Source of the DNA: Nitrospirota bacterium
GTDB taxonomy: Bacteria > Nitrospirota > JACRHL01
Direction of reading: 5' to 3'
Length of the DNA: 64,000 nucleotides
NCBI GenBank assembly: GCA_029881725.1
Contig: JAOUMB010000010.1
Span: 1,539 to 65,538 of the forward strand
The translations under genes and the position numbers were made by a program. The notes beneath the pieces were generated by a model. It was not told where the DNA came from and ran no database searches. It saw nothing but the letters and a program-made list of their open reading frames with translations. Of this stretch, positions 34,349 through 61,793 are shown in pieces; within the stretch, counting starts at the first letter, position 1, and each line of letters begins with the position of its first letter.

Positions 34349-34393
34349 CGGTTTACCTCAGTGCGCGCCCGCAACCGGCCAATAAAAATTCGA

Positions 34394-35983
34394 TCACCGT
34401 TCAATGGTGATATCGGAAAACGACTCGGTGGTGTGGCACCGGCCGCAGTCTCTTCCAAACTGTTCGCTGTGGACATCGTCCTGCAGGTGACAGGCACCGC
34501 AGGTGTTGGGCTGTTTGACACCCTTTTTTGAGGGCGTTTTGTGGCACGCGAGGCAGTCCAACCCCTCGTGCTTGCCGTCCAGCTTGAACTCGGTCTGCCG
34601 GTTGTGGTCAAAGGACCACAGGGGCCACCCGTTGGGGTTGTGGCAGGTGCCGCACAGGCTTCCCAGCCGCCGTTTGTGCTCGTCCTGCTTCTTGTGGCAG
34701 GCATAGCACTCCCCTTCGGTTTTCACGTAGCGCCGGTCCAGGTGGCACTCCTCGCACGGGGTGACCGCGTGCTGGCCGATGAGCGGAAACGGCGTCAGGT
34801 CGTGGTCAAAGCGCACCTGATCCCGCCATCCGGTTTCCCGGTGGCACTGGGCACAGTTTTCGCCCTGGCGCCCGTCGTGCACGTCGTCCCCCTTGTGGCA
34901 GGCATAGCAGTCGGTCTTGAGCTCCTCCTTGTACAGCACCCCCTTGTGACAGGACCGGCAACGGGCCTTTTCGTGGGCGCCCTTCAGGCGGAAATCGGTG
35001 TCCTTGTCGTGGTCGAAGATCACCCGGTCCCACGCCCTGGGCGTGTGGCAGGAGTCGCATTTCTCCCCGTAGCGCCCCTTGTGCTCGTCGTCGTTCTTGT
35101 GGCAACTGTGGCAATCGGTCTTGAGTTCGTCCTTGTACAGGTCGCCGGTATGGCACGCTTTGCAGGTGACCTCCTTGTGGCTGCCCTTCAAGGGAAAATC
35201 GGTGTCCTTGTCGTGGTCAAACCGCACCCGGTCCCACTTGTCCGGGGTGTGGCAATCCTCGCACTTGTCGCCGTTGGCGCCCCGATGCACGTCGTTGATC
35301 TTGTGGCAGGCGACGCAGGTGTCGGGCACCCCCTTGTACTTCTCTCCCGGGTGACACATGGCGCAGGCCACGTCCATATGGGAGTCCCTGAGGGGGAAGT
35401 CGGTCTTGTCGTGGTCGAAGGCGGTTTTCTTCCAGCCGGCGGTGGAGTGGCAGTCCTCGCACTTTTCCCCCAGCCGCCCGTCGTGGGCATCGTCTTCCTT
35501 GTGGCAGGCAAGACAGGTGGCGGGGGCATCGCGGAACTTCTTGTCCGGCTTGTGGCAGCCGTCACAACGCACGCGCTGATGGCGTCCCTTCAGGCGGTAA
35601 TCGGTCTGGTTGTGATCGAAGGTTTCGCGGTTCAGGCCCACGACATCGGCACTCCGGCCCACGTGATCGGTGTGGCAGACCTGACACTCCTGATTCGCCA
35701 CCTGGGGGGAACGGCCGTGAAACCCGCGTTTTTTACCCACGTCGGACGCCACATCCTTGTGGCAGTCCAGGCACAGGTTGTTCTGCACCCCCTTGCTGAA
35801 CCGTTTGTGGCAGTTGGTGCAGGTGTCCTCGTACTTGGCGTGCCCGGAAATCAACTCGCCGGGCATTACCAGCCGCTCAAGCGGACCGGCGAGGGCGCTA
35901 TGGGGAAACGTCAGCACAGCCATGATAAAAAGCGCCAGCGCCGCTACCAGGGCGCGCCGGACGAAAAAATGCCGGTGCGGCAT
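34394..35983 (-). CDS. Periplasmic multihaem c-type cytochrome with about 21 CXXCH (polymer of c7/c3-like trihaem units).
   Basis: Signal peptide MPHRHFFVRRALVAALALFIMAVLTFPHSALA. 21 CXXCH motifs, from CTNCH through CGRCH. Repeating module C..CH..D.H.G..G..C..CH......W....FDH..T.F.L.G.H....C..CH. Its ATG overlaps the stop of the upstream gene (TGATG). Confidence 0.9.
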   Translation of the reverse strand: MPHRHFFVRRALVAALALFIMAVLTFPHSALAGPLERLVMPGELISGHAKYEDTCTNCHKRFSKGVQNNLCLDCHKDVASDVGKKRGFHGRSPQVANQECQVCHTDHVGRSADVVGLNRETFDHNQTDYRLKGRHQRVRCDGCHKPDKKFRDAPATCLACHKEDDAHDGRLGEKCEDCHSTAGWKKTAFDHDKTDFPLRDSHMDVACAMCHPGEKYKGVPDTCVACHKINDVHRGANGDKCEDCHTPDKWDRVRFDHDKDTDFPLKGSHKEVTCKACHTGDLYKDELKTDCHSCHKNDDEHKGRYGEKCDSCHTPRAWDRVIFDHDKDTDFRLKGAHEKARCRSCHKGVLYKEELKTDCYACHKGDDVHDGRQGENCAQCHRETGWRDQVRFDHDLTPFPLIGQHAVTPCEECHLDRRYVKTEGECYACHKKQDEHKRRLGSLCGTCHNPNGWPLWSFDHNRQTEFKLDGKHEGLDCLACHKTPSKKGVKQPNTCGACHLQDDVHSEQFGRDCGRCHTTESFSDITIER

Positions 35984-42104: not shown

Positions 42105-42611
42105 ATGATCAAGCGCTTGAGCCCGATTCTGTTTATTGTTCTGCTGGCCGCCTGCCAGCCCAAGGAAGGCGCCAAACCCGCGGATTCGGCCGGTGCCGGC
42201 CCGCAGTCCTCCCCCAGCGCCGAATCACGCCCGGCAGGCAGCGCCGAAGCGGAAGTGGCGAACTACATCCGTACCCACATGATGGTCAAGGAAGTGCGCA
42301 TCGGCGAGGGACGCCAGGGCGCCGACGGCGGCGAGACGATCCGCGCCCTGTACGGCGTGGTGGCCAACGGTGGCACCCGCGACCTGAAAAAAGTGGTTAT
42401 CCAGGCGGATCTGCTGGATGCGAACGGAAAACCGGTGGCAGCCGCCGAGTTCGTGCCGGTGATCGCCACCCGCGACGGAGCGGTGGACGAGGCGGGGCTG
42501 CTCAAGGGCCATTCGGAACGGGCCTTCGGGTATTCCATCGAGCATCTGGTTCCCAAAGAGTGGAAGGGGACCGCACGGGTGATCGTGACCGGCCTTGAAT
42601 TCCACGGTTGA
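42105..42611 (+). CDS. Hypothetical lipoprotein.
   Basis: AGGGAG RBS. MIKRLSPILFIVLLAACQP (lipobox LAAC). Low-complexity linker followed by a small globular domain. Confidence 0.6.
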   Translation: MIKRLSPILFIVLLAACQPKEGAKPADSAGAGPQSSPSAESRPAGSAEAEVANYIRTHMMVKEVRIGEGRQGADGGETIRALYGVVANGGTRDLKKVVIQADLLDANGKPVAAAEFVPVIATRDGAVDEAGLLKGHSERAFGYSIEHLVPKEWKGTARVIVTGLEFHG

Positions 42612-42639
42612 GGGCCATCCCTCCGACCGGTCCTCATCC

Positions 42640-44583
42640 ATGTTCCCTTCCGGCCGCCTGAACGCCCGGTGGCACACGCCGCTGCACCTGCTTTTACTGG
42701 CGCTGGTGTGTCTGGGGGTGTACGCCAACGGCTACCATCACGTATTCCAGCTGGACAGTTCCCACGTTCTGGAGGACAACCCCAGCGTCCGCAGCCTGGG
42801 CAACATCCCGTCCTATTTCACCGATCCGGGCACCTTTTCGGTGCTGTATGCCAATGTGGACTACCGGCCGGTGCTACAGGTCACCTATGCCCTGAATTAC
42901 TGGCTGGGCGGCTACCACATGCCGTGGTGGCACTTCACCCAGATCCTGCTGCACTTCCTGTGCGCCGTGGGGATCTACCTGCTGTGCCGCCGGGTGATAG
43001 CGCTTTCCGAACCGGAACACTCCGACGGGGCCTGGATCCCACTGGCCGCGGGATTGTTGTTTGCCCTGCACCCCACCGCGTCCGGGGTGGTCAATTACCT
43101 GTCCGCCCGCTCGTCGTTGTTGACCGCCGCATTTTTACTGCCGTCCATCCTGCTGTACATGGACTCCCTGGAGGGTCCGCATAACCGCCTTCGGCGGGCG
43201 ATGGCCGCGCTCCTGTACACGCTGGCCCTGTTCTCAAAAATCGAGGCCGTGGGGTGTCTGGCGGTCTACTTCATGTTCGAGATGTGGCACACTGCGCGCA
43301 CCGGGGGCCACCGGAACGGATTTTTTCGGGATCTGGCCGCAACCCTCACCCCGTCGGTGTTACGGCGTCTGGCGCCGTTTCTGGCGGCTACCGCCGCCTA
43401 TCTGGCCATTCGCGCCCCGCTCATGGCGCGTTTTCCGTTCGGTGATTCCCGCGAGGGCACCGGCATTGGCAACCTGGACTACCTGTACACCCAGTTGGTG
43501 GTGTGGTGGGCCTATGTGGGCAAGTGGTTCGCCCCGGTGGACCTGGTAGCCGACCAGGGCAACTATCCGGTTTACCGCAGCCTGCTGGAGCCCACGGTGC
43601 TGGTGGCGGCGGGCGGCTGGGCGTTGGTCACCGCGCTGCTGATCACCGGGTGGCAAAAACGGCCCCATCAGGCGGTGCTGGCTATCTCGGCACTGGCCCT
43701 GCTCAGCCCCACCTCGTCCATTCTGCCGCTGGCGGAAATGCTCAACGAACACCGCCCCTATCTGCCCATCGGGATTCTGTCGCTGGTGTGGATCATCCCC
43801 GCCGCCCGGGCCGCCGAACGCATGGCCTCGGAAAGCCGTGGCTTCCCCCTGTATGTGCCGGGGCTGGTGGCGCTGTTGTGCGGGCTGGGCGCCCTCACCT
43901 TCGACCGCAACCGGGTGTTTCTGACCACCGAGAGCTACTGGCTGGACGTAATAGAAAAAGCCCCCTCCGCCCGCGCCTATGTGAACTACGGTCTGACCCG
44001 CATGACCGCAGGCGAGATAGAGACCGCCCAGGAGTATTTTTTAAAGGCCCAGGAGATGTCGCCCAACTGGCATATCGTGCACATCAACCTGGCGGTCACC
44101 TACCGGGAACAGGGGCGGCTCGATCTGGCCGAGCAGTATTACAACCGCGCGGTGGAGAGCGATACCTTCACCGGCGGCTCCCTCTCCTGGCGGGGCGAAT
44201 ACCGGCTTACCCGCGGTCGCTATGCGGAAGCCCTGGCCGACTTTCTGGCCAGCCAGCCGAAAAGCCTGGAGCACTACCGCAACGCCAAGGGGGCGGCGAC
44301 GGCCTTCGCCGGACTGGGCGATGCGCAAAACGCGTTTGTGCACACGGCCCGTTGCCTGAAACTGAACGCGGAGCAGACCGGACGCGACATCGTGGTCATT
44401 GCCGAGCCGTTCTTCACCCTTCCCTCCGGGGCCGCTCCCGGTCTGGCCTATTTCCAGAAACTGGCTGAACGTCTGCCGGACACCTGGTGGGTGCATGCCA
44501 ACATCAGCACCCTGGCCTTCCGCCTCGGCCAGAATGAACTGGGACAGCAGGCCGACGCCCGCGCCCAGGCGCTCAAGGGGTAG
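42640..44583 (+). CDS. Polytopic membrane protein with C-terminal TPR repeats (TMTC/DUF1736-like, GT-C-fold glycosyltransferase-like).
   Basis: N-terminal half has about 10 TM helices with a DYRP(V/L) motif (ANVDYRPVLQVTYALNYW). C-terminal roughly 200 aa are TPR-like (AYVNYGLTRMTAGEIETAQEYFLKAQEMSPNWHIVHINLAVTYREQGRLDLAEQYYNRAVE...). Confidence 0.7.
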   Translation: MFPSGRLNARWHTPLHLLLLALVCLGVYANGYHHVFQLDSSHVLEDNPSVRSLGNIPSYFTDPGTFSVLYANVDYRPVLQVTYALNYWLGGYHMPWWHFTQILLHFLCAVGIYLLCRRVIALSEPEHSDGAWIPLAAGLLFALHPTASGVVNYLSARSSLLTAAFLLPSILLYMDSLEGPHNRLRRAMAALLYTLALFSKIEAVGCLAVYFMFEMWHTARTGGHRNGFFRDLAATLTPSVLRRLAPFLAATAAYLAIRAPLMARFPFGDSREGTGIGNLDYLYTQLVVWWAYVGKWFAPVDLVADQGNYPVYRSLLEPTVLVAAGGWALVTALLITGWQKRPHQAVLAISALALLSPTSSILPLAEMLNEHRPYLPIGILSLVWIIPAARAAERMASESRGFPLYVPGLVALLCGLGALTFDRNRVFLTTESYWLDVIEKAPSARAYVNYGLTRMTAGEIETAQEYFLKAQEMSPNWHIVHINLAVTYREQGRLDLAEQYYNRAVESDTFTGGSLSWRGEYRLTRGRYAEALADFLASQPKSLEHYRNAKGAATAFAGLGDAQNAFVHTARCLKLNAEQTGRDIVVIAEPFFTLPSGAAPGLAYFQKLAERLPDTWWVHANISTLAFRLGQNELGQQADARAQALKG

Positions 44584-44644
44584 CCCCGCCCCGACCGGCC
44601 CGGGAAGCCCCCCCTTCCCGAATCCAGATTTCCTGAACAAAAAA

Positions 44645-44676
44645 GGCCCGGACGAATCGTCCGGGCCTTTTTTGAT
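44645..44676. terminator. Bidirectional rho-independent terminator between convergent genes.
   Basis: aaaaaaggcccggacgaatcgtccgggcctttttt: perfect 9-bp stem ggcccggac/gtccgggcc flanked by an A-run and a T-run. Confidence 0.75.
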
Positions 44677-44723
44677 TTAACCCCGGCGGCACGTGGCTGC
44701 CGAGGGAGATTCGGGTGGGTCGT

Positions 44724-46028
44724 CTACGGGTGACCCGGGCACGGTTTGCCCGGCACGCAGATCATGATCACCGCCAGCATGCCGCCCGGTCCCACACCCT
44801 CGTTCTGCAACTCGATCTCGAAGTGCGAGTGGAACGGAACGTACATCTCGCCCATGGCGTTCAGGTTGATCGGTGCGTCGGCACCCAGGTCCACCTTGTG
44901 GCCCAGATAGGCCGTACCGCTGAACAACTGGCCAAAACCCACGTTGATGTTCACCGAGTTGTGCTCCGGCGGCACGATCACCGGCACCGGCTGGGTTACG
45001 TCTCCGCCATACACGTCGAACCCGAAGTTCATGGGCGGATCCCAGGTGAAGATGCCGTCCTGGGTGTCTCCCGGATGCATGGTCTGGGTGTACTCCTCAA
45101 TGGCCAGGTCGCCGTTCACGCCGTCGGAACTGAGCGGGCGGCCGTTGCGGGCCAGCACCATCAGATGGTTGCCGTGGCTGTGCAACGGATGCATGTCACG
45201 ATCGAAGGTCACCATGCGCACCAGCAGCCGCTCCTTGGGATACAGCGCCAGCAACGCGCCCATGGGCTGGTTGGGCAGATACGAAACCGTGTCCGGCGCG
45301 ATGGTGTCCGGGAATGCCCGCCCGTTGACGAACCAGTACTGGGGCAGATAGGCGGAGTTCTGATACGGCAGACCCGCCTTGATCCGCTTGTGCTGATCCG
45401 GGTCCACCGCGCTGTAGAACTGCACAACTTCATAGTCGTAGTTGCTGCCGGTGGTGAAGTAGGCCTGGTTGGGCAGCCCGGTGCGCACGATGATCGCGCC
45501 CACCAGTCCCATATCCACATGCTTGTGCGGATAGGTACCGCTGTAATAGGTGTAGGTGCCCGGCTTGGCCGCCACAAATCGATAGGACACGGTCTGTCCT
45601 GGAGCCGCCTCGCCCGCCAGGGAGCGCAGGGATTCCTTGCTGCCGCCGGTGGTGTAGGCCGGGCCGGTGGGCGCCCAGGTCACACCGCCGTCGGACGAGA
45701 ACTCCACGTTCTCGTGCCCGGGAAACAGCAGCGACACCGCATCGGCGCTCATGGGGCCGCTGGGGCCGTCCATGTCCGGCAGCGCGTTGGTCAGGTTGAC
45801 CGTTACCGTGTCACCCACCAGCACGTCGAGCACCGGGCCCGGGTAGCGGAAACCGCCCGCGCTGTCGCGGAAGCTCCACATGTAGATCTGGGCGCCGTCC
45901 GGCATCGAGATCTCACCCGCGTCGGCCGTCAGGTTGAATACCGCCGCACTGGCCGGGGTAAAGGCCATCAGAAGCATCCCGACGGACACCCCTGCCGCCG
46001 TCAGCATGCGTTTCATTACGCCGCGCAT
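44724..46028 (-). CDS. Multicopper-oxidase superfamily (cupredoxin) secreted protein that appears to lack the type-1 Cys ligand.
   Basis: Sec signal MKRMLTAAGVSVGMLLMAFTPASAA. HPLHSHGNH and HSHFE His clusters are retained. At the position where the neighbouring paralogue has YHCHVEPTEHIALGMVG, this protein has YPHKHVDMGLVG (no Cys). Confidence 0.75.
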   Translation of the reverse strand: MRGVMKRMLTAAGVSVGMLLMAFTPASAAVFNLTADAGEISMPDGAQIYMWSFRDSAGGFRYPGPVLDVLVGDTVTVNLTNALPDMDGPSGPMSADAVSLLFPGHENVEFSSDGGVTWAPTGPAYTTGGSKESLRSLAGEAAPGQTVSYRFVAAKPGTYTYYSGTYPHKHVDMGLVGAIIVRTGLPNQAYFTTGSNYDYEVVQFYSAVDPDQHKRIKAGLPYQNSAYLPQYWFVNGRAFPDTIAPDTVSYLPNQPMGALLALYPKERLLVRMVTFDRDMHPLHSHGNHLMVLARNGRPLSSDGVNGDLAIEEYTQTMHPGDTQDGIFTWDPPMNFGFDVYGGDVTQPVPVIVPPEHNSVNINVGFGQLFSGTAYLGHKVDLGADAPINLNAMGEMYVPFHSHFEIELQNEGVGPGGMLAVIMICVPGKPCPGHP

Positions 46029-46109
46029 AGGTCCATCTCCGCGATAGTTGGCAAACGATGTCTGCCGGTCAAGCCGTTCATATCCACTCCTGGCACCCTG
46101 CCTTCCCGG

Positions 46110-47498
46110 TTAGTTCAACCGGATCTCGGTGATCATGCCACCCCTGTTGTCCACTCCCAGGCCTGCCTGGCGATCGGCCAGAGACAGGTTTGCCTGGGTG
46201 TCCAGTTCGCGCCCGTACAGAAAATACGTTCCCGGAGCCAGCCCCGTGGTGTCCAGAATCACGTCCATCTCTTCCCCCCCGGCCAGCGCCAGGGCTGAAC
46301 GATGGTAGGAAAGGTCGGTGCCCGGAACGCCACCCGGGCCGTCCGGTCCGCGCAGGATCTTGGCATCCTTGCCCACCACGTGCATGGGAATGCCCGGGAT
46401 GACCAGCGAGTGCGAACGGTAGGTCAGGTTGTTGAGGCGCAGCAGGATGCGCTGCCCCACATTGGCCGTAATCAGCGACGAATACGGCTGGGCGATATAG
46501 TCTTCCTTGTAGGCGGAAGCGCCGTTCAGCATGACGTTGGCAGCCGGATCCGGCGCCGCCGGGAGTAATGTCTCCGGATAGGCACGACCGTTGAAGGTGT
46601 AGTAGTTGGCCTTGAACTCGGCCCACACGTTGCGCCCTTCCGCCACGGTCTCCAGATTATGGTGCTTGTCCGCGTCCAGGTCGTGCATGTGAATCACCTG
46701 GGCCACGTCATACCGGGTGTTGGGCGCGGCGCCGCCATCGTTGTAGGCGAAGAACTGCCCGGCGGCCGGGTTGTTCTGGGCCGGATTGACGATAATCGTG
46801 CCCACCATGCCCAGGGCGATGTGCTCCGTCGGCTCCACGTGGCAGTGGTAGCCGTAGGTGCCCGGATCGTTCAACTTGTAGAAATAGGTAAAGTTGCTCG
46901 AAGGTGGAACCGCAACCGACATCTCTGGCACCCCGTCAAACGCCGAAACCGCGTGTGCATACCCGTGGAAGTGGACCGTATGCGGGTCCGCCAGGTCGGG
47001 GCGCACCAACAGCCCGAGGTTGGTGATCGTCAGATAGAGGGACTGTCCCTCGTCCACTTCAATATCGGGTGCCGGAAGCGTAGCCTTGAATTTATAGTCG
47101 ATCAGGTCTGCCTCGGGCACTCCCGTCAGGTCCATGAATCCGAAAATGAACAGGTTGCTGCCGTCCGGCATCTTCACATAGCCGTCGGTGGTGCCCACCC
47201 GACGGCATACCGCCGTGGGGTCGATGGGCAGGCCACTCTTGTGGTTGTACGCGCCGTCGCCGTTCCAGTCGATGTCCTCGGCACCCGGGGTTGCGCTGTA
47301 GCCCGGAGCGGCGGGGTCCAGGGACCAGTCGTACGGCATGTTGTCAATATCGTTGGGGCACTGCATGCCCGTGCCCAGGGAAACCGGAGCGGTAACGGCC
47401 CAGGAGTCGGTGGCTCCGGCCAGCCCGGTGGCGGCCATGGCCAGCCCGAGGATCATGGTTTTGGCCAGATTCCATTTGTTGGAGCGCCGCGGCTTCAT
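46110..47498 (-). CDS. Multicopper-oxidase / NirK-like cupredoxin protein with an apparently complete set of copper ligands.
   Basis: Signal peptide MKPRRSNKWNLAKTMILGLAMAATGLAGA (possible Tat-like RR). HTVHFHG (HxHG), YGYHCHVEPTEHIALGMVG (H-C-H...H....M type-1 site), later VIHMHDLDADKHH. RBS GGGGAG. Confidence 0.8.
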   Translation of the reverse strand: MKPRRSNKWNLAKTMILGLAMAATGLAGATDSWAVTAPVSLGTGMQCPNDIDNMPYDWSLDPAAPGYSATPGAEDIDWNGDGAYNHKSGLPIDPTAVCRRVGTTDGYVKMPDGSNLFIFGFMDLTGVPEADLIDYKFKATLPAPDIEVDEGQSLYLTITNLGLLVRPDLADPHTVHFHGYAHAVSAFDGVPEMSVAVPPSSNFTYFYKLNDPGTYGYHCHVEPTEHIALGMVGTIIVNPAQNNPAAGQFFAYNDGGAAPNTRYDVAQVIHMHDLDADKHHNLETVAEGRNVWAEFKANYYTFNGRAYPETLLPAAPDPAANVMLNGASAYKEDYIAQPYSSLITANVGQRILLRLNNLTYRSHSLVIPGIPMHVVGKDAKILRGPDGPGGVPGTDLSYHRSALALAGGEEMDVILDTTGLAPGTYFLYGRELDTQANLSLADRQAGLGVDNRGGMITEIRLN

Positions 47499-47659
47499 CT
47501 CAAATTCTCCCCGCATCAGGTCGATCTTGCGGGTGGCCGGGCACAGGTTCAGATTCCCGGTGTTCTCTGCTTTTGAATCTTGTTTCATACTCAGTCCAAC
47601 CCTTGGTCACACAAAAAAGAGGGGGTGGGGGTGGCCGAAGCCACCCCCACCCGTTGGGG

Positions 47660-50266
47660 TTAGTTCGCGATCACGCAGATGGCGTATACCGTGAGGGTGC
47701 TATCCGAGATTTCACCCGTGGTGTCCACCTTCACGCGCCAGCCGGTGGGGTTGAGCCCGCCGTCGGGCAGGTTCTCCACCAGACGCAGGGCCGGGCCGGA
47801 GAGGCCGAGTCCCACGTGGCCGGTGTAGCCACCGCCGACCGGCTTCTTGCCGACCGGGCAGGTCGCCGCGCCACCCGCCGCCGCCTGTGCGGGCGGTACG
47901 GTCACGGTGGAGCTGATCACCTGGTAGCCGGAGACACCGTTGATGCCGTCGGCACCCGCGGCGCCGGTGGCACCCGTGGAGCCGGTGGCACCCTGCGGAC
48001 CCGTGGCACCCTGCAGGCCCGTGGGGCCCTGGATACCCGTGGCACCCGTGGCACCCACAGCGCCGGTGGCACCGGTGGCACCCACAGGACCCTGGGCACC
48101 GGTGGCACCCGTGGAGCCGGTGGCACCCTGCGGACCTACGTTACCCTGCGGACCCTGGGAGCCCTGCGGACCCGTGGCACCCTGGATACCCTGCGGACCA
48201 GCCGGGCCGGTAGCGCCCTGCGCACCCTGCGCACCCACAGCACCCTGCGGACCGGTGTTACCGGTGGCGCCCTGCGGACCCTGCGGTCCGGCAACGCCCT
48301 GGAGGCCTTGTGCGCCCTGCGGGCCGGTATCACCCTTGGCACCGGTGGCACCGGTGGCACCTTGGGCACCCTGCGGACCAGTGTCACCGGTGGCGCCCTT
48401 CGGACCAGCCGGTCCTGTCAGACCGGTATCACCGGTGGCACCCGTGGCACCCGTGGCGCCAGTAGCGCCGGCAGCGCCCTGCGGACCAGCCGGTCCGGTC
48501 AGACCGGTATCACCGGTGGCACCCGTGGCACCCGTGGCGCCGGCAGCGCCCTGCGGACCTACATTACCCTGCGGACCCTGGTTGCCCTGCAGGCCCTGCG
48601 GACCAATCGGACCCTGGTCACCCTTCAAGCCCTGCGGACCCTGCGGGCCCTGCGGACCCACGGCACCCTGCGGACCGGTGTTACCGGTGGCGCCCTGCGG
48701 ACCCTGCGGTCCGGCAACGCCCTGGAGGCCTTGTGCGCCCTGCGGGCCGGTGTCACCCTTGGCACCGGTGGCACCTTGGGCACCCTGCGGACCAGTGTCA
48801 CCGGTGGCGCCCTTCGGACCAGCCGGTCCGGTCAGACCGGTATCACCGGTGGCACCCGTGGCACCCGTGGCGCCGGCAGCGCCCTGCGGACCCACGTTAC
48901 CCTGCGGACCCTGGTTGCCCTGCAGGCCCTGCGGACCAATCGGACCCTGGTCGCCCTTCAGGCCCTGCGGACCCTGCGGACCGGTATCACCCTTCGCGCC
49001 GGTCGGGCCAACCGGGCCCATCGGGCCAACATCACCCGTGGCGCCGGTGGCACCCTGCGGACCCACGTTACCCTGCGGACCCTGGTTGCCCTGCAGGCCC
49101 TGCGGACCAATCGGACCTTGGTCACCCTTCAGGCCCTGTGGGCCCTGGGCACCGGTGGCACCCTGCGGACCAGCCGGTCCGGTCAGACCGGTATCACCGG
49201 TGGCACCCTTGGCGCCCGTGGCGCCGGTGGCACCCTGCGGACCCACGTTACCCTGCGCACCCTGGGAGCCCTGCGGACCCGTGGCACCCTGGATACCCTG
49301 CGGACCAGCCGGTCCGGTAGCACCCTGCGCACCCTGCGGACCCACGGCACCCTGAGAACCGGTGTTACCGGTGGCGCCCTGCGGACCCTGCGGTCCGGCA
49401 ACGCCCTGGAGGCCTTGTGCGCCCTGCGGGCCGGTATCACCCTTGGCACCGGTGGCGCCCTGGGCACCCTGCGGACCTACGTTACCCTGCGGACCCTGGT
49501 TGCCCTGCAGGCCCTGCGGACCAATCGGACCCTGGTCACCCTTCAGGCCCTGCGGACCCTGCGGACCGGTATCACCCTTCGCGCCGGTCGGGCCAACCGG
49601 GCCCATCGGGCCAACATCACCCGTGGCGCCGGTGGCACCCTTCGGACCAATATCACCCTGCGGACCCTGCGATCCCTTCGGACCGGTGGGGCCATCCAGG
49701 CCCTGCGGACCCACGGAACCGGTGACGCCGGTCGGTCCAACCGGACCCACCGGACCCTGGGCACCGATGGCACCCTGCGGACCCTGCGGACCCTGCGGTC
49801 CCGGGGTCAGGGAGGTATAGGCATACGGAACACTCCCGAACGGACGCGGAGGCGTCAGCTCCTGGAATGCAACGTTAAAGGGGTCGGGGCTGAACCACAC
49901 CCGCAGCAACGCTTCCGAGGTTCCGAAGGCGGTGGCCGGGATGGGGTTCATCCCCGCCGCGCCGAGATCCACGTGAAAATCGCCGTAGACGACCGGAGCC
50001 GCCTGGGAACCGGCGGGCACTTCCACAATCTGGTTGCTCTCCACCGAACCGTCGTTCGACCACAGGGTGGCATACCCCGCCGTCGCATTCCCGGTCACGA
50101 TGGTGAATTTGAAATATCCGGTACCGGTGAACGGAACACCGCTGGCGTCAAGCTTCCCCGAATAGGGAACGACCTCCGGAATAAGGGATTGCTGCGCCCA
50201 CACAGGTACCTGCCCAAAGGCAAGCATGGTGGCCGCGACATACACAAGCAGTCTCGACTTTTTCAT
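47660..50266 (-). CDS. Collagen-like triple-helix repeat protein with N- and C-terminal globular domains.
   Basis: Signal peptide [24 protein letters not shown]. About 165-aa N-terminal domain, then about 200 uninterrupted Gly-X-Y triplets ([25 protein letters not shown]...), then a roughly 95-aa C-terminal domain ending ...[16 protein letters not shown]. Confidence 0.85.
47950..49790. repeat. Internally repetitive DNA encoding the collagen Gly-X-Y tract.
   Basis: Long runs of near-identical 9-27-nt units (ggcacc ctgcggacc ...). Antisense frames give long spurious ORFs (for example 47573..50560 +). Confidence 0.8.
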
Positions 50267-50317
50267 CTTAATACTCCCACTGTTCACAGAACGACACATC
50301 CTTGTTGTTCATTTAAA

Positions 50318-50926
50318 TCAGTACAATCTGTAATCGGCGCTGGTGCTCTCACCGGTCACCGGACCATCACGCCCGGTCATGCTGCCCATCACGTCCACCA
50401 GGACGTAGCCGGCGGCACTGCGGCGGTTACTTACTGTCGGAAACGAACCCGAATCAAACGGCAGGGACCCCAACGCCAGTTCCATCAGATCGGTAAAGCC
50501 GTCCTGATCGCTGTTGGTGAACTGAATCTCCCCCGCGGTCAGCACCACGGTGGCCAATAGCGGATCGGTCCAGTTCAGATTGGCGGTGGTCCGGCCCACC
50601 ACGGTGCGGGTGGAGCCATCATCGATCAGAAACACGATGTCCAGGGCCAGCGTGGGTCCGCTATGGCGGATGCTGTCCTGAACGGCCCCGGTGGCGGGAT
50701 CGATATTCAGTTCCACCACACTTCCATTGGCAAGGTGTGCCTCGGCCACCAGCGTCCCGCCTGGAACCTGATGGTGTACCAGTTGGGAAGGAAGATCGAT
50801 CTTGAAATCCTTCGCCGCCGAAGCACCGCCGCCCTCGGGGCCACCCGTTGCACCGCACCCCGCAGTCACGAGCATCATCGAGACTCCGAGGAACAGCCAC
50901 CGGAACCTTGCGCCGGTTTTTGTCAT
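50318..50926 (-). CDS. Hypothetical lipoprotein.
   Basis: MTKTGARFRWLFLGVSMMLVTAGCG (lipobox VTAGC). No recognisable motifs. Lies immediately upstream of the collagen-like gene. Confidence 0.55.
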   Translation of the reverse strand: MTKTGARFRWLFLGVSMMLVTAGCGATGGPEGGGASAAKDFKIDLPSQLVHHQVPGGTLVAEAHLANGSVVELNIDPATGAVQDSIRHSGPTLALDIVFLIDDGSTRTVVGRTTANLNWTDPLLATVVLTAGEIQFTNSDQDGFTDLMELALGSLPFDSGSFPTVSNRRSAAGYVLVDVMGSMTGRDGPVTGESTSADYRLY

Positions 50927-51447
50927 TGATCTAAAACACACGGTTATTTAACTCCTGCCTTCTGTCGCCAGACCGGTATTTTCCGGCCGATTCGACCTGT
51001 GCTGGATCCGGGTTACTCAAACACCTTAACAACCCGTCCCCATCCGGAGACTTGATCCCATCCATGGGCACTCCACAAACACAGTTCCATTCGTGTCTGC
51101 ACAATATCAGTGCACCAGACGATTGCAGGTTCTTTGCCAATCGTCCCGCTTTTCGTAAACATGATTATCTTACAGTCACTTATGATCGACTCGCACTGAG
51201 CACTCGTCAATTCACAACCAAACACTTTCTATTGCTGGGAAAAAGTTTAGGACTTTCCGACAAAATATTGACGAAACTCTTTCCCTTTGGAAATGAGTAC
51301 ATTTACATAGCACTTTTGAGGGGGGTGGGGGTTCCGCAAGGGGATAGCGGAACACGGAGGCGGTTATCCGGAAACCGGAAGTTCAAGAGGGAGGAATTGA
51401 GGCCAGATTTTCGGCACCGCGCGGGAGGCGCGCGGGGGGAAGGATAA

Positions 51448-51975
51448 TCAGTTACCCAGATCGGTTCCCGAGGTCGCGGTGACGCGGTCCGGAAGCACCG
51501 TTCCGTCCACCCCGATAAAGGTGGTGCCATCCCAGACCAGAGCCCCGTTGTTGCCGGTTCCCGAAAGGTCAAAACGGAGGGTTCCCAGCGTTCCTTCCGA
51601 AACCCCTTCCAGGGCCACCAGCAAACGGCCCGGATCACTGGTCAACGGCAGCATCCGTGCCGCGCCAAGGAGGGGATTGGCGGTGAAGCCGGAAAACGTC
51701 ATCCATGTGGGATCGAACAGGATTTCGGCCGAAATGCCGCCCACCCCGGCCAGGTTCAACGTGGGGTCCAGGTTGGACAGGGACAGGGTCACGTCCGCGC
51801 GGGTTGCGGTGGAGCCGGGTAACAGGGTGAGTGACAGGAGATTTTCACTGGCACCATGCCCGCCGCCCGGAACGACCGGGTCACCCCCACCCACGCCACC
51901 TCCACCACAGGCGGCAAGCAGCACGCAGACCAGTGCGGCGCAAAGAGGCGCTGATATCCAGTGGCCACGGGTCAT
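51448..51975 (-). CDS. Small lipoprotein of about 175 aa, probably beta-rich (speculative cohesin-like partner for the dockerin proteins).
   Basis: MTRGHWISAPLCAALVCVLLAACGGGG (lipobox LAAC). Its ATG overlaps the TGA of the upstream S8 peptidase gene (ATGA). Ser/Thr/Gly-rich, strand-like sequence. Confidence 0.55.
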   Translation of the reverse strand: MTRGHWISAPLCAALVCVLLAACGGGGVGGGDPVVPGGGHGASENLLSLTLLPGSTATRADVTLSLSNLDPTLNLAGVGGISAEILFDPTWMTFSGFTANPLLGAARMLPLTSDPGRLLVALEGVSEGTLGTLRFDLSGTGNNGALVWDGTTFIGVDGTVLPDRVTATSGTDLGN

Positions 51976-53918
51976 GGAAGCCCCCTTTTCGAACCAAACA
52001 GGGACTCCAGCAGCAGCCGGTCGGCGCCGTCCAGAACCCCGTCGCCGTTCAGGTCGAAGCGGGGGTGCGGACTGGGGGAGGTCATCGCCGTGGTCAGGCT
52101 GACCAGGTCGAATGCGTCCACCCGCCCGTCCGTGGCCACGGCGCCACGGTTTACATCGCCCGGCATGGCCTCCGCCGGGGCGCTGCGCAAGGACGGATTT
52201 CCGCCGTCCACCGCTTCCACGGTATAGATGTCCCCCGGACCGAAGGCCCGTCCGGAATCGGTCAGTTCCAGTCCGGTGGTGGTTCCCAGCGCAAACCCGT
52301 TTCGGGATACCGCATAGGCAATCCCCGCGCCCCGGCCGGGCACCGCGTCCCACCGGACGCTCACCCCGGTGCCGGTTTCGGCCAGCCAGAGGTCCGGAAC
52401 ACGTGCCACCTTCGGAGCCAGTCCCCATCCAGCGTTGCCGGCCAGCAGCTGGTTGAAGGCTGCGGTGATGTCAATCAGGCCGAACCCGTACTGGTTGTTC
52501 GGTGTGGCACCCCCATCCAGCGGGATGGCGGTCAATGCCAGCGCGGCCTCCACCTCATCCACGGTCAGATCCGGAAATGCCGACAGCAAGAGCGCCACCG
52601 CGCCGGTCACGTGGGCAGCGGCAATGGAGGTGCCGTTGAAATACTGATAGTTGGCCACGCCGCCATTGCTGAAGGTGGCGGTGTAGACCTCCTGGCCGGG
52701 GGCCACCACATCTGGATACTGGGGGCGGCCGGCACAGGTGGTGGGTCCCTGCCCGCTGCTCTGCCCGGCAAAATTCCACAAAGCCCCCTGCGGGTTGGTG
52801 GCTCCCACCGCGATCACCTCCGGATACCCGGCGGGAAGGTGCGGCTTGCCGTCGTTGCCGGCCGAGGCCACCAGCACCACACCGGCGGCACGCAGGTTTT
52901 GCATGGCCACTTGCAGGTCGGTGTAGGTGTTGCAGGATTTTCCCGGTTCCACGGTGGATTGCAGCGACCAGCTCATGTTGATCACGTCCGGCGGAGTGGT
53001 TTCCAGCAACCACTGCAACGCACCCAACGCGGCGGCCACGTCGGAAGTACCGTTGGCATTGATAATGCGTGCGGCGGCCCACGATGCATCCGGGGCCAGG
53101 CCAATCCCCTGTCCGGAAGCGGCATGCCCCAGAATGGTGCCCATCACACCGGTTCCGTGCCCGGAATAGGCGGAACTGGAGGGGTGATCGGCAGGGACCG
53201 GGGAGCCGGGACACGGCCCGGCACCGGTGCCGGTGGTATCGCACCAGCCACGAGCCCCGGCGCGATAGCGGCTGGGAACCAGATCCGGGTGACGTGGGTC
53301 CACACCGGTATCGGTGGTGGCCACCACAACCTCTCCTCCGGTGTAGCCCATGGCCCACACCGGAGCGGCATTGACCTCGGTCAGGTTCCATCCCTCCGGG
53401 GCCACTCCGCCCCCGCCACCCCCAGCCTGGGGAACCAGCGGCACGCTGACCGGTGCGTTTTCAATGATGCGCGCCTCGGGAAACTGGGCGGCAAGTTGAC
53501 GGATGGTTTCGGGAGTGGCATCCAGGGCCACGGCGTTGATCAGCCACAGGGGGCGCATACGCGTGGCGCGCCCGGCCCGCACATGTTGTTGCAACTGGGG
53601 CAATGCGGTCTGTTGGGTCGCCTCGGCGGCCCGGCGCAGACCGGAAATCATCCCCTGCCGGCGCATTATGCGCGGCTTTCCGGCCACGGACGGGCGCAGT
53701 GCCGGATCGTCGGGAAATACCAGAATCACCGGCACCAGGTCGCCGGACCCGGCGGCGGCCATGCGCCCCTTCAGGGTGGCGTCAATGGTGCCGGCGGATA
53801 CCTCGGGGGAGTCGCTCCACTGCATGGCCAGCGCCAGCAGGAACAGGGCAAAGGCAAACCCCGCGCCGATGGCGGCGGGGGTGCCGTAATTGCCTGATTT
53901 TCCGGAGGGAATGCGCAC
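51972..53918 (-). CDS. Subtilisin-like S8 serine peptidase with a C-terminal type-I dockerin module.
   Basis: GTG start. N-terminal signal anchor. Catalytic triad motifs VVATTDTGVD (Asp), SGHGTGVMGTILG (His), GTSIAAAHVTGAVALL (Ser). C-terminal DVNRGAVATDGRVDAFDLVSL...RFDLNGDGVLDGADRLLL (two Ca-binding dockerin segments). Confidence 0.85.
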   Translation of the reverse strand: MRIPSGKSGNYGTPAAIGAGFAFALFLLALAMQWSDSPEVSAGTIDATLKGRMAAAGSGDLVPVILVFPDDPALRPSVAGKPRIMRRQGMISGLRRAAEATQQTALPQLQQHVRAGRATRMRPLWLINAVALDATPETIRQLAAQFPEARIIENAPVSVPLVPQAGGGGGGVAPEGWNLTEVNAAPVWAMGYTGGEVVVATTDTGVDPRHPDLVPSRYRAGARGWCDTTGTGAGPCPGSPVPADHPSSSAYSGHGTGVMGTILGHAASGQGIGLAPDASWAAARIINANGTSDVAAALGALQWLLETTPPDVINMSWSLQSTVEPGKSCNTYTDLQVAMQNLRAAGVVLVASAGNDGKPHLPAGYPEVIAVGATNPQGALWNFAGQSSGQGPTTCAGRPQYPDVVAPGQEVYTATFSNGGVANYQYFNGTSIAAAHVTGAVALLLSAFPDLTVDEVEAALALTAIPLDGGATPNNQYGFGLIDITAAFNQLLAGNAGWGLAPKVARVPDLWLAETGTGVSVRWDAVPGRGAGIAYAVSRNGFALGTTTGLELTDSGRAFGPGDIYTVEAVDGGNPSLRSAPAEAMPGDVNRGAVATDGRVDAFDLVSLTTAMTSPSPHPRFDLNGDGVLDGADRLLLESLFGSKRGLP

Positions 53919-54411: not shown

Positions 54412-57400
54412 TTAATTTGCAACACGGTTCCGCTCCCACAATCCCAGGTCGTTCATCTTGACGCAGCCGTCACCGCTCAGATCGGCCGCGGGGTTGAAGC
54501 CCGCGTTACCGGTGCACAGTCCCAGCTGCTCCATCAGCACCAGATAGTCGGCGTCGTCCACCTGACCGTCTCCGTTGATGTCGCCCGACACCGTTCCCGG
54601 TGAAATCGGAGTGACGGTGACCACCACCAGGTCGGTGGTGGCCGCGCCATCCGGGTCGGTCACGGTGAGGGTCGCGTTGTAGGTACCCGCCGCGATGTAG
54701 CTGTGCTGGGTCGGAGCGTCCAAAGTGGTCCGTCCGGTGCCGTCACCGAAGTTCCACAGATAGGTCAGCCCCGCCTGATCCAGCGGACTCGGGTCGGTGG
54801 CCGTGGCATTGAATACCGCGGGGGTTCCGACTCCGACCGTGAGATCCGGCCCGGCGTTCACCACCGGCGCCACGTTGGCCACATCGGCGTAGAAGGCCGC
54901 CTGCTGCACCAGCCCGTCGAGAATCAGCGTCAGGGTGGCGATGTAGGTGCCGCTGTCGGCATAGACGTGGTTGAAGATCACCGGTCCGGTGCCACTCACC
55001 GCCGTGGTCCCGTCACCGTAGTTCCAGGTCCACGACCCGGCCCCCAGTTCGGAGATCGGCTGGGTGATGGCGATGCCCTCGAACCCGGCCAGACGGAACC
55101 CGGCGATATTCGCCAGCGCCTCCGGACAGGTGTGCACCGCCATGGTCGCCGTCATCTCGTCGGCGCCGGCGTCCATGCAGAACTGCAACGGACGCGGGTC
55201 CCCGTCGAAGTCCGCCACCGGCAGGATGATTCCCTGCGCGGCCAGGTCGGTAATACCGGCCTGCAGGGCGGGCGATCCGTCCATGATGTGGTAGTCGCCC
55301 TGGGGCAGCAGCGGGCCGAAGTCCACCGCCACCGGCACCGCCAGCGGGTTGATGGCCACCTCACCAGCGGCGCGTACCACCACACCGGTCAGCCAGTTGT
55401 CATACGGGGCCTTGAACAGCGGCCAGTTGGCGCCGCTGCCCACATAGTTCAGGGTCGGCTGAGCCACCGGAAGGGCGCGCACCAGCGACTGGTCCGAGAA
55501 CAGGTTATGGGTCGCCCGGGTCAGAGTTCCGGTCATCTGGTACAGGTCCAGATCGTAGGCCTGCGGCAGATCGAAGGTCGTGATCGGCTCGTTCCAGCGG
55601 TACGACAGGTTGTCCCAGAACACGTTGTTGTACAGGGCCGGGTTGCTGTGCACCGGTGATCCCGGAACCTGATACGGAACCGAGTTGCGGTACACCACCA
55701 GACCCGCCGAGTGGTGACCCGGATCCAGCAGCAGGGATCCCGCCGTGGAGGTGGTCACGTTCTTGGCGATGGTGTTGTGGGTGAGCACCACATCCAGGGC
55801 GTCGTGGACCTTGATGGCGCCCTGTCCGGCCGCCACGTTGTTCACGATCTGGTTGTTCGTCACCTCGATGCGATGGGCACCGGTCTGGGTGAAGGAAATC
55901 GCCGAACCGTCCTCGGTGGAGAAGTTCCCCTGCAACCGGTTGTTGAGAATCCGCACCTGGCCGGAGCCGGTGGACGCCACGCCCACCGCGCCCGGAGGCG
56001 GACCCTTCACGCTGATGCCGCCACCGTCCACCAATGACCAGTTGAACAGCACTTCGTTGTGCTCGATGACGTTCACCCCGCCGGCCGTGGCCAGATGCGA
56101 GATGCCGCCACCACTGGTGTTGGAGCCGTTGGCGCACACCAGGTTATGGTCGATGCGGTAGTTGCTCACCCCCTGGTAGACGCCGATACCACCGGCCTCA
56201 CCCGGGGTACCGTTGTTCAGCACCAGGTTGTGATGCACGCGGGCACCGTCGATGAAGTTGTCCGGATATCCGGCGAAGCCGATGGCGATACCGCCGGTCA
56301 GCATGCCGAAGTTGTTGATCACCTTGCTGTTGGACACCACGGTGCCGTGGGCGAACACGTTCACGTGCACGCCACCGCCCAGGCGGCCGCCCTCGATCTG
56401 CAAGCCGTCGACGCGCACGCCCGGATCGGGATCCAGCGGCGTTCCAACGGGCAGCGGGTTGATGGACAGATCCCGCGCCAGCACGGTCAGCGTGGACAGG
56501 GCACCGGCGGTCGGATGAATCTGCTCCAGCAGGTTCGCGTCGCGGTTGATGTTCACGATCTGGTCCAGCTTTTGCCGCCAGAGCTGCTTGGACAGCGGCG
56601 TGACCGTCTCGCTCACGATCTGGGTGGCACCGGGGCCGAAGCCCTGAAGAGTGATGCCCTTGTAGACGATCGGGCTTTCCGGGTAGCGCACCGGGAGGTT
56701 CACGTTACCCGGCACCAGCAACAGGGTGCCATACGGAGAGCGGTCGATGGCGTCCTGAATGGTCTCGTTCGGGAACAGCGCCAGGCCCGAGCCGCCCACC
56801 GTCTCGATGTGCGGGTTATAGGCCACGCCGAGCTTGTGGATGGTCATGCCCGAAGGGGTCACCTTCAGATTGTCGGCGGTCACCAGCAACTGGTGCGGAC
56901 CGTCGGCAATCGCGGTCACCCCGTCGGCGGCGGCGATCTGCACGGTAATGGCGGTATCACTCCAGGTGGTCACCGCCAGGGGGATGCCATCCAGGGTCAC
57001 CTTGCCCAGCCCCTGCAGGGCGCCGAAGCCGGTACCAAAGATGTTCAGCACGCCGCCGGTGGCCAGCGGGTCATCCACCCCCGCGATCTGCGGGGTGCGG
57101 GTGGCCGGCTGGGCCGGATCGTCGATCAGGCACACCACGTTTTTGCTGGCAAAGAAGCCGTTCACCGGGGTCAGCGCCATGTCGGCGTAAGAGGTCTTGC
57201 CCGGATACAGCTCGAACTGCATGCGCAAGGTGTCGTAGTCCGGATTGAAGGCCGGATCGATCTGACCGCCGTAGCCCGGATGGTTGGCGTACACCGCCAC
57301 CATGTTGGGCACCATGCCGGACGGGGACGGGGCGTTCACCCGGCTGGTGGACGGCAACAGCACCTCGAAGTAGCCGTTCTCGTCGGTATAGGTGTGCACG

Positions 57401-60400
57401 ACCTCGACACCCTTGTAGTCCTGGACCGAAACCGGCACGAACGCCACGCCGCGCTTGTCGCCGAAGTTGGTCACGGTGCCGCGGGTTTCCAGGTTCAGGT
57501 TGTCGTTTACAAACCCGCGCAGACGCGCCGGGGTCGGCACCTCGGTAAACAGGTGGAAGTCCGACGCCGCGTTGTTGGCGTTGGTGACCGTCACCACCTT
57601 GAGGCCGCAGTCGTGCACCCGGGTCCCCAGGAACGGGTTGGGCGGATCGTTCAACTGCGTCACGTCATACATTGGACCCACGCAGCCGCTGGGCGCCAGC
57701 ATGGCCGCCACCGGTTCCGCATAGGGGTTGGCGCCAAAGGTATCGCCCTGGGTGAAGGCGTTGACGTCGTTGGAGGTCATCAGCTTGTACGGTTCCGGAA
57801 CATGCACCTCCACCAGGTACTTGCCCGGGGCAAGCGGTCCGCACAGGCCGCTTTCCGGGTCGAACAACGCGTTCGGGTCGGTGCTGGTATCGTCACGGCA
57901 GTCCTCGAAGAACTGATACCCGCCGTCAAACACCGCCGGTTTGATCTGGTTCCAGGTCTGCAACACGTCCCGGCACTCCAGGTCCACGTGCTGGGTGACG
58001 GTGCCGTCCGGCTGCAGCTTCTGCACGGTGCAGTTGGCGGGCGGAGCGGCGTTGTAATGGTCGGTCTGCACGGTGCCGATCAGGCGCCCCTTGCGGGCCG
58101 CGCCGGCACTCGGGTCCGGATTGGGGATCATGACTCCCGGGTTTGTGGGGTCCTCGATCATATCCGGGACCGTCACCAGGGCGCCGGTGACCGGGTCGAT
58201 CACCGCTTCGTGCAGGTGCAGGGTGATGTTGGGGATACCCGGCTCCCACGGCTCCGGCCCTTCCAGACTGACGTCGTAGTTGGCGCGGGTGGTGTTGTAC
58301 CAGACCACGCCGGACACGCCACCGTTGATGGCCACATAGTCATTGCCCGCGGCCGCGTTGCCCACGGTCGGATACGGCTTTTTACCCCAGTCGATGCGGT
58401 TGGTGCCACCTTCCAGCATGAAGGTACCCATGGTCAGCACCGGACCCACGTCGGTACGCACCTCCAACGGTGGCTCACCCAGGTTGGTCAGGCCGATAGC
58501 CGCGGTAATGGTGGCGCCGGTGGCGGCCATGTTGGTGTAGCCCACCGCCGGAACCATCCAGTGACCGAACGGGAAGAAGTGACGCAGATGGTATTCGCCG
58601 GCACCGTTGGTGACGGTGGCATACAGGGCGCTGCCGTCCCGGTGGCGGACCTCCACGGCCTCGCCGGAAAGGCCCTGCTCACCAGCATCCTGGATGCCGT
58701 TCTCGTTCCAGTCCAGGAACACGCTGCCTTTGAGCTGACCCCACCAGTCGGGGATCAACAGGGAACGCTGGGCCCCGGCGCCAAAGCGCGGATCGAACAC
58801 CTCCACATCGCGGGACTCGATGCCGTTGGCCAGCAGTTGCGGCATGGACACCGTGTAGGTGGCCATGATGAAGTCCAACGCGTCGTCGAACGCCACCAGA
58901 CTGTAGTTGCCGTCGGGCACGCCGGTGATGGCGAAATTACCGTCCGCATCGCCGCGCACCAGCGCAATCTGCTTGCCGTTGGCGTCATTAAGGGCCAACC
59001 AGGGGAAAGGCACCGGGCCACTGATGCCGTCCGGTACCGTGAACGGCGGCCGCGACGGCTCCACCTTGGACAACTTGCCCCAGAAGCGGCCGGTGCCCGG
59101 CGCCATCAGGCCCGAGTTGCAGGAGCCGACCGCGCACGGCTGCACAAAGCCGTGGAAGATCAGCGCCGCGGTCTCCACCGGGAACACGCCCTCGTTGCCT
59201 TCGAGCACAAAGGCGTCGATGACCTTGCTGCCCTCGATGGTGGTGGTCTGAATCCAACCGGAACCCTGCGGAGGCAGGGCCAGCACCTCGTACTTGCCGG
59301 CCGGGATGTTCTCAATGGAAACAAAGCCGTTGCCGTCGGTCCAGCAGGTACCGCCGGTGCCAGCAATCAGATTGCCCGCGGGATCATATTTGGAGCAGAT
59401 CGGATTGCCGTAGTAGTCCTCGGTCATCATTCCGCCGGCATCGTTGATCACGATCCTGAACGGCTGCACGGTGCCGGAACCCTGGATGTACTCGCCGGAG
59501 TTCAGGTCGTACTGGCGGCCCAGGGTGGGGGCGGTCTCGGTCTGCCAATCCCAGGTGCCGTTCAGGGGCGAGGTGTCCTCGAACACCTGCACCACGATAC
59601 GCGACAGCGGGGTGGGTCCGAAATGCACCGGCACGGTTACCGTAACCGGCGCCGCATCGACGGTAAAGGCGCGCCCGTCCATCTTGTGCAGTCCGCCGTC
59701 CAGGGCGGCCTGATCGGCGACGGTGCCATCGTTGGTGATGACGCTCACGAAGTAACGGCCCGGCAGCAGGTTGACCGTGCCCCCCACACCGCCGACCACC
59801 GTGCCCGCCGCAACCGGCGGGGTGTTGCTCTGATACTGCTTGTGGGACGGGCAGTCATCCGCCACGCCGTTGCCGTTCAGGTCCGCGCACCCCAGAAGGG
59901 ACGGGTCCACGATCGGCGTGTTGTCCACGTTGATCATGAACTTGAAGTTGGGGATCGACGTCGGCAGGCTGGTCAGCGGGTCGATGGTGTCTTCCTGCAC
60001 CAGTACGGTGACCGGAACGGTGCCGGTGGGCGGCGGGTTGGTCCAGTCCACATGGGCGGTGGACTGCACCTGCAGGGTGATGGCGGCCAGCGCCACACCC
60101 CCGTTGCCGTCCTCCGCCTGCACCTGCAGGGTCACGTCGTAGTTTCCACCGGTAGCGGAGTTGCTGATGTTGGGCCAGCTGACCGCGCCGGTGATGTTGT
60201 CGATGGTGGCACCGGGAGGCGGGCTGAGCAGGTAATAGGTGATGGTGTCGGTCACGTTCACGTCGCTGGCGACCACGGTGGCCGAAAACGAGGTGCCAGC
60301 GGTAATGGGCACGGTGCCGGTGATCGGCGTGACGCCGTTCAGCAACACCTGGTCAATTACCGGGTTCATGTTGACCGTGAGGGGAATCGCCTGGGTCACC

Positions 60401-61680: not shown

Positions 61681-61793
61681 GTTCACCACCTCGTTCCTCA
61701 CCGGAGTCATATTCATATTCCTTGCCCCCGAAATCCTCTGGGTACGGCTTTGCAGCCCGTCACGCCGGTCACACATACCATTCCGATCCATGA

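Follow-up and report, generated by a model that had tools for sequence, protein, structure and literature searches.

A bacterial collagen-like protein with a putative beta-prism head in a Nitrospirota genome

The stretch of DNA analyzed here (the window; 64,000 nucleotides (nt) of contig JAOUMB010000010.1, Nitrospirota assembly GCA_029881725.1) encodes a long collagen-like protein on its reverse strand at 47660..50266. It is considered fairly probable that this protein is exported by the Sec pathway and forms a homotrimeric rod of collagen type that bears globular domains at both ends, the C-terminal one of which would be a beta-prism head. The protein is organized as a signal peptide, a 131-amino-acid (aa) N-terminal domain, 209 Gly-X-Y triplets and an 86-aa C-terminal domain, and the proposed nature of the head is drawn from the copy number, the sequence profile and the predicted structure of its relatives.

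Gene and domain architecture

The coding sequence is complete in the open reading frame (ORF) list and its translation (868 aa, stop codon 47660..47662), and lies within an enclosing ORF (47660..50299, reverse strand) of 879 aa. Upon direct reading of the sequence, a Shine-Dalgarno-like GGGAG was found at 50274..50278 on the same strand, 7 nt ahead of the ATG at 50266, and no comparable site precedes the upstream ATG at 50299, so that the 868-aa form is the likely product. Large ORFs on the opposite strand (e.g., 47573..50560) are shadows of the GC-rich repeat. The first 155 aa comprise a Sec-type signal peptide of 24 aa (50195..50266), recognized by eye from a basic n-region, a hydrophobic core and a V-W-A site and presumably cleaved before QQ, followed by the N-terminal domain (49802..50194), an immunoglobulin (Ig)-like beta-sandwich; homologues in the family likewise begin with signal peptides. 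The collagen tract (47921..49801; 627 aa) is built from imperfect higher-order DNA repeats, and the head module (47663..47938) consists of the junction GVSGYQ and the 86 aa past the last triplet, ending in …YAICVIAN; all of these features lie on the reverse strand. The original prediction of a real, long and uninterrupted collagen-like protein with globular ends at this place is thus borne out, as is the ending that it gave for the C-terminal domain, the length of which it put at about 95 aa where 86 were counted.

The longest in-phase run of Gly, as counted by script, extends over all 209 triplets with zero interruptions, for which a chance origin is excluded because 0.33^209 is below 1e-100 even at 33% Gly. 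The suggested search with the Pfam Collagen model (PF01391) returned a match at E 9.4e-97, with 317 bits against a cut-off of 27.2 bits. Pro (75, 36%) and Ala (69) are the most frequent residues at the X position, and Gln (86, 41%) and Thr (66, 32%) at the Y position; the tract holds 14 Lys, 20 Asp, no Arg and no Glu, and its motifs include 49 GPQ, 40 GAT and 9 KGD. In bacterial collagens, KGD triplets make salt bridges and Thr triplets are typical (PMC11923368). The composition of the tract fits hydroxyproline-free bacterial collagens and would be compatible with a stable triple helix. Internal DNA repeats occur with periods of 171 nt, 333 nt and others, and the longest exact repeats measure 103, 99 and 89 nt. 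To place the protein “among the longer bacterial collagen-like proteins” was an overstatement, as chains of up to about 6000 aa have been reported (PMC11923368), which makes a 627-aa tract long but not exceptional. Only by the standards of its own head-domain family is it extreme, being approximately 10 times longer than the tracts of other collagen-linked members (median 11.5 triplets, range 6-22).

The N-terminal domain has no match in Pfam, NCBIfam or PHROG (E<=0.01). Its predicted structure is an all-beta sandwich of a generic Ig-like type, and the module recurs at the N-terminus of secreted fibrous proteins. A profile search returned 271 relatives, the few with a named source being Chloroflexi, Verrucomicrobia and Deltaproteobacteria metagenome-assembled genomes (MAGs). 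In every relative inspected, the module either follows the signal peptide directly or opens a product that is truncated, and is itself followed by collagen (P0185, P0186), by pectinesterase/beta-helix-like sequence (P0152, P0188) or by other repeats. Since it heads so many different secreted fibrous proteins, the N-terminal module is probably the attachment or interaction end of the molecule.

The C-terminal head and its family

The C-terminal domain matches nothing in Pfam (E<=1), NCBIfam or PHROG (E<=0.01). Word-indexed searches with single domains yielded 1 and 2 matches only, and relatives came to light in number through the profile search for the N-terminal domain and an exhaustive phmmer search for the C-terminal one, the latter returning 222 relatives. 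The named relatives looked up, e.g., from Streptomyces, are all recorded as “hypothetical” or “secreted protein”, no Pfam model covers the module, and ten relatives gave no Pfam or NCBIfam domain call over it. Two Cys per module are invariant in 51 proteins that carry three copies, and the window module has its pair within ATCPVGKK and YAICV, where a disulfide able to tie the two sheets together would be expected to form; its other motifs include C-P-x-G-K-K-P-V-G-G-G, G-W-R-V and V-Y-A-I-C. Judged by sequence, the domain is a member of an uncharacterized family of modules of about 80 aa with one conserved Cys pair.

Among the best 149 representatives with a domain match, 77 carry three copies, four carry six, and 56 carry a single copy. 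A run of 6-22 Gly-X-Y triplets immediately precedes the module in 34 of these 56; a further 10 or so are fragmentary sequences opening at the edge of the domain, which is expected where contigs break in collagen repeats. A short Gly-X-Y run is found in only 1 of the 81 three- or six-copy representatives. The junction between helix and domain is conserved as G-x-x-G-V-S-G-Y-[EQ]-V-V (the S and G positions in 27-29 of 34), to which the window protein is an exact match. Some single-copy head proteins lack collagen (P0054, P0074, P0030 and P0023), and in its place the head is preceded by a segment that looks helical (…NANFAALVVESNAQDARIGALEAAPGVSGYEI) or by an N-terminal motif with Cys that is shared among them; this pattern suggests that alternative trimerizing stalks may be in use, as in resistin.

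The structural evidence comes from the three-copy relatives, to which the window domain is linked by profile alignment (hhalign probability 98.9%, E 1.3e-17). An AlphaFold2 (AF2) model of one of them (P0003), computed with 50 relatives, reached a pLDDT of 92.9 and a pTM of 0.88 and has six strands per module, each module of about 80 aa forming a 4+2-strand beta-sandwich. The three-copy homologue is modeled as a compact domain, of which 207 residues superpose on the whole C-terminal domain of PCSK9. The profile of the three-copy family also matches the APCbeta domain of TgPLP1 across two to three modules (5ouo_A, E 8.2e-5; 6d7a_A, E 1.5e-4), and PCSK9 and resistin are not detected with it by sequence. 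Both APCbeta and the PCSK9 V-domain are double-layered beta-prisms made of three 4+2-strand repeats of about 80 aa with disulfides and pseudo-threefold symmetry (PMC6294395, PMC5943054), and the PCSK9 modules M1-M3 have been likened to the resistin homotrimer, of which they are held to be the counterpart (PMC9113161). Pseudo-threefold packing is seen within the single chain of the three-copy relatives. The window protein would need a homotrimer for this, for which the support is the copy-number split; since each of its chains supplies one module only, a prism could form only between molecules. Most likely, then, the C-terminal domain is one third, or one wall, of a three-sided beta-prism head like that of PCSK9 or resistin, and most likely it serves as the trimerization and registration module. 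By analogy, three chains would complete one prism, with the collagen helix replacing the coiled coil of resistin. The trimerizing role that the original prediction suggested for this domain therefore stands at that strength, and the C1q/BclA type that it suggested does not, as neither terminal domain has a C1q or BclA match in Pfam or NCBIfam and the fold evidence points elsewhere.

Resistin and the RELM proteins (PDB 1rgx, 1rh7) are homotrimers with a coiled-coil stalk and a disulfide-rich beta-sandwich head, whereas in the window protein, from a bacterial host, the short coiled coil would be replaced by a triple helix of collagen type with as many as 209 triplets. Resistin contains many disulfides; the window protein has one Cys pair per module and no detectable sequence similarity to it. 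The PCSK9 C-terminal (V/CHRD) domain and APCbeta carry three tandem modules per chain, unlike the window protein with its one, which also lacks their protease or MACPF partner domain. C1q, adiponectin and BclA, the last of which forms surface filaments, share the overall design of an N-terminal part, a collagen rod and a C-terminal trimer, presumed in the window protein, that nucleates and registers the helix. With the collagen-like adhesins Scl1/Scl2 of streptococci and Lcl of Legionella, the window protein has in common Gly-X-Y tracts without hydroxyproline, and the NCBIfam models for these proteins score highly on it (SclA 456.8 bits, cut-off 400; SclB 326.5, cut-off 325; Lcl 486.3, cut-off 500). 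However, the Scl matches are 4-8 stretches that all lie inside the collagen tract, and the Lcl matches are likewise confined to the repeats. The Scl label (NF038330/NF038329) was rejected as repeat-driven, since the protein does not end in LPXTG and its N-terminal domain is modeled as all-beta and not as a helical V domain, Scl bearing that domain at the N-terminus where the window protein would have its trimerization module at the C-terminus; the Lcl label (NF046116) was rejected as falling below its cut-off on repeats only. Repeat content by itself can thus lead the NCBIfam Scl models to mislabel proteins of this kind as LPXTG adhesins. The literature searched yielded no description of a PCSK9/resistin-type head from bacteria or linked to collagen, and within the libraries and papers searched this prism fold appears to have been described so far only in eukaryotes.

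Length of the collagen tract

The same locus is present on five other contigs (L001-L004, L007), whose flanks show 100% identity, and identical N- and C-terminal parts of the gene are present among them, so we read the gene as real and always present. The length of its tract is a different matter. The original prediction regarded the repetitive DNA as a hotspot for recombination or length variation, and it is indeed a trouble spot, where assemblies break or skip between exact repeats of 64-103 nt. Assemblies of the same strain match gene nt 1-785 and 1270-2607 at 100% identity. L003 matches the first 728 nt of the gene and L007 the first 785 nt; L001, L002 and L004 all begin inside the tract, L004, from another sample, being an exact match to the final 1338 nt of the gene and the other two matching shorter 3' pieces. 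It is possible, if doubtful, that the 209-triplet length is a product of assembly, and that the true gene is shorter or reordered (e.g., 97 triplets) or is polymorphic through recombination between internal repeats. Such a scenario draws on L003, which is of the same strain as the window (all 11 mismatches lie past gene nt 728) and carries a complete ORF of 532 aa and 97 triplets, which corresponds to the window gene after the loss of 585 nt and of 423 nt. In both cases the deletion passes precisely through the longest exact repeats, of 103 nt (626/1211) and of 89 nt (1516/1939). L007 follows a third path through the tract, from nt 1-785 to 1704-1769 and then 1851-2016, where the contig ends. 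In addition, exact-product look-ups found no record of the 868-aa or the 879-aa form. The long form is nevertheless favored by the window ORF itself, which holds Gly in phase over 1881 nt with no frameshift or stop, and by L004, the identity of which spans the whole of the second “deletion” of L003. Further, 253 of the 454 31-mers of nt 786-1269 are found nowhere else in the gene, which marks this segment as real DNA and not a duplicated assembly path, and the short-read assemblies disagree with one another, which points to errors in those assemblies. The long form is therefore probably right, short-read assemblies collapsing the tract, and there may also be true polymorphism of tract length in cells.

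Genomic setting, rival explanations and proposed role

Immediately downstream of the collagen gene on the same strand lie MCO1 (46110..47588), a 492-aa multicopper-oxidase (MCO)-like protein with Pfam Cu-oxidase_3 and Cu-oxidase_2 domains, and then MCO2 (44724..46028), a cupredoxin/MCO-like protein of 434 aa by Pfam. Upstream are an S8 protease (51972..53918) with a dockerin match just under the Pfam cut-off (20.9 vs. 22.9 bits) and a 2459-aa protein (54412..61791) with Cu-oxidase, PKD and dockerin domains. The co-location with MCOs and dockerin proteins that had been pointed out for this locus accordingly holds, the protease being a sub-cut-off case. By exact protein look-ups, the locus belongs to a Nitrospirota MAG (accessions MDH5526514-19). 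An intrinsic terminator (47613..47652, reverse strand) with a 13-bp stem (11 G-C pairs), a TTCG loop and a T-run begins 8 nt past the stop codon and is the only terminator-like site in 44500..52000, so that the collagen gene is probably expressed alone or with the upstream lipoprotein gene and MCO1 would be reached by read-through only. In a second organism (L009 1..2597; JGI 3300032259, GC 60%), the order of C-domain gene, MCO1 (67% identical) and MCO2 (63%) is kept, and a long perfect hairpin (about 300..345, by eye) again follows the homologous gene ahead of MCO1. The product of that gene (P0001) is the closest relative of the C-terminal domain (58% identical), and the contig starts exactly at the collagen/C-domain boundary. 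The strength of the terminator suggests that the collagen protein could be made in excess over MCO1 and MCO2, and a terminator at this place, matched by the hairpin in L009, may set a high ratio of fiber to oxidase. MCO1 appears to be associated with the collagen gene by this conserved gene order. A scan of representative genome contigs, a set that does not include the genome of the window lineage itself, found only distant MCO1 loci (41% and 35% identity). In one contig from a Deltaproteobacteria MAG (L005 768..9278; JAFDHW010000010.1), a 2836-aa ORF contains the MCO1 homologue; next come MCO2 (38% identity), a third ORF of cupredoxin type and a homologue of the 163-aa lipoprotein of the window (35%). 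Neither terminal domain of the collagen protein is present in L005 or L006, and no collagen gene is found among the ORFs of L005.

Other genes around the locus were also considered. Directly upstream of the collagen gene, a 186-aa lipoprotein with no family match (50318..50878, reverse strand; lipobox VTAGC) contains the motif D-Q-D-G-F-T-D-L, which resembles a calcium-binding dockerin or thrombospondin-type loop; it could be a partner or anchor. A further lipoprotein (51448..51975, reverse strand; lipobox LLAAC; 175 aa as called, L003 3202..3729) has a C-terminal part that by eye resembles a cohesin and stands next to proteins with dockerin matches, but Pfam lends this resemblance no support even at E<=10. 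A 662-aa protein (42595..44583, forward strand) has an apparently multi-pass hydrophobic N-terminal part of about 430 aa (by eye) and C-terminal TPR repeats, an architecture that recalls TMTC/PMT-type protein O-glycosyltransferases and is of interest given the 66 Thr of the tract; reading its membrane domain by eye as a GT-C glycosyltransferase likewise found no Pfam support at E<=10. About 12 kb away, two large multihaem cytochromes (32573..36064, reverse strand) with cytochrome c7/c3 repeats and MtrC/MtrF-like matches adjoin a ferredoxin/flavin oxidoreductase and an ankyrin/Sel1 repeat protein, and suggest a capacity for extracellular electron transfer. Very long ORFs without a Pfam match (2107, 1283 and 2016 aa) lie at 22300..31837 on the forward and 22525..28575 on the reverse strand.

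This setting invites the proposal that the collagen protein serves an extracellular copper-oxidase system as its dedicated stalk or scaffold, which would hold or organize MCO1 and MCO2, and perhaps the dockerin proteins, at a distance from the cell, and may template the deposition of metal oxide. In Bacillus spores, which carry a collagen-like nap, the exosporium likewise bears the Mn oxidase MnxG. The gene order kept in L009 is consistent with such a role, as are the run of secreted proteins on one strand, including the 2459-aa protein and the S8 protease, and the multihaem cytochromes nearby. The 2836-aa ORF of L005, in which the 2,000 residues upstream of the MCO1 homologue are unrelated to the collagen protein, further hints at a tethered MCO1. 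However, the synteny with the MCOs is seen in two lineages only, L005 keeps MCO1, MCO2 and the small lipoprotein without the collagen gene, and the terminator splits that gene from MCO1. In addition, no cohesin or dockerin domain is detected in the collagen protein, and other members of the head family stand in unrelated contexts, including a phage-like contig. A dedicated scaffold is on balance regarded as unlikely. That phage-like contig, of 56 kb (L008; ENA ERZ27257310), encodes at 8001..8753 a protein of 250 aa (P0105) that joins 19 Gly-X-Y triplets to the same head module. The gene lies amid some 40 small genes, WhiB and endonuclease VII included, and the contig looks like an actinophage genome; the presence of head and collagen there indicates that the design is used in several settings. 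It also raises the question of whether the window protein is itself a phage-derived fiber (a tail fiber or receptor-binding protein whose shaft is collagen and whose head is trimeric) that survives as a chromosomal remnant or was co-opted. Collagen shafts are common among the tail-fiber families of PHROG, and Foldseek against viral models (BFVD) gave weak matches to mycobacteriophage minor tail proteins (E 2.5e-5, TM 0.29) and to viral proteins of 75-79 aa. This origin is nonetheless highly improbable, as virion proteins normally have no Sec signal peptide such as the one found here, and neither terminal domain of the window protein has a match in PHROG. There is no phage gene nearby, the neighbors being MCOs, a protease, lipoproteins, cytochromes and transporters, and the flanking genes and their order are shared with the second organism (L009).

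The favored reading of an exported homotrimeric rod with a prism head has points against it as well. The case for a trimeric head is built on copy-number logic and a homologue reported by hmmer as 47% identical, and the division between single and triple copies is blurred by ten representatives with two copies, at least four of which look complete, and by two with four. Gene nt 786-1269 are without independent support in any other assembly, and exact-pattern scans of JGI metagenome contigs gave 0 matches to this middle part of the tract, which also speaks for the shorter-tract alternative. The terminator argues against tight co-transcription of the collagen gene with MCO1, and the MCO cluster of L005 has no collagen gene with it. 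Lastly, no anchor (LPXTG, lipobox, beta-barrel, type IX secretion system (T9SS) or PEP-CTERM) or secretion system was seen in the window, so that localization beyond the periplasm is assumed.

With these points in mind, the model of an exported rod with a prism head proposes that each of three chains contributes one C-terminal module to a three-sided beta-prism, which would form first and set the register of the chains through the conserved junction G-V-S-G-Y-Q. The triple helix would then zip from the C-terminus toward the N-terminus. The resulting rod, at a rise of 0.286 nm per residue, would be about 180 nm long if all 209 triplets are real. Folding of collagen is known to nucleate at the C-terminus (PMC11923368). 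The product most likely acts as an extracellular or cell-surface fiber or spacer of this Nitrospirota bacterium, and would work alongside the two neighboring MCO-like proteins; the surface-fiber role that the original prediction regarded as plausible would be of this kind. A bolder version, which we hold to be decidedly unlikely, is that a large undescribed bacterial family of the PCSK9-V-domain/resistin type is represented here by one module on a long rod, the stalk of which displays MCO1 and MCO2 or templates metal oxide. If true, a diderm bacterium would be using a protein fiber as scaffold for the redox chemistry of metals outside the cell.

A trimeric head on a collagen rod is a recurring design, known from C1q, adiponectin, BclA and phage fibers, and it is the cap that appears to have a different fold here. 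The head comes from a bacterial family that lacks annotation and is related to the V-domain of PCSK9, to resistin and to APCbeta. The contrast between one module joined to a trimerizing stalk and three modules within a chain would offer a natural example of interconversion between oligomer and tandem repeat, and the family would give a bacterial context for the origin of the C-terminal domain of PCSK9. A small head with a single disulfide could also serve as a folding tag for recombinant hydroxyproline-free collagens. For the organism itself, the conserved pairing of the collagen gene with two copper oxidases offers a testable starting point for the study of metal oxidation outside the cell in uncultured Nitrospirota.

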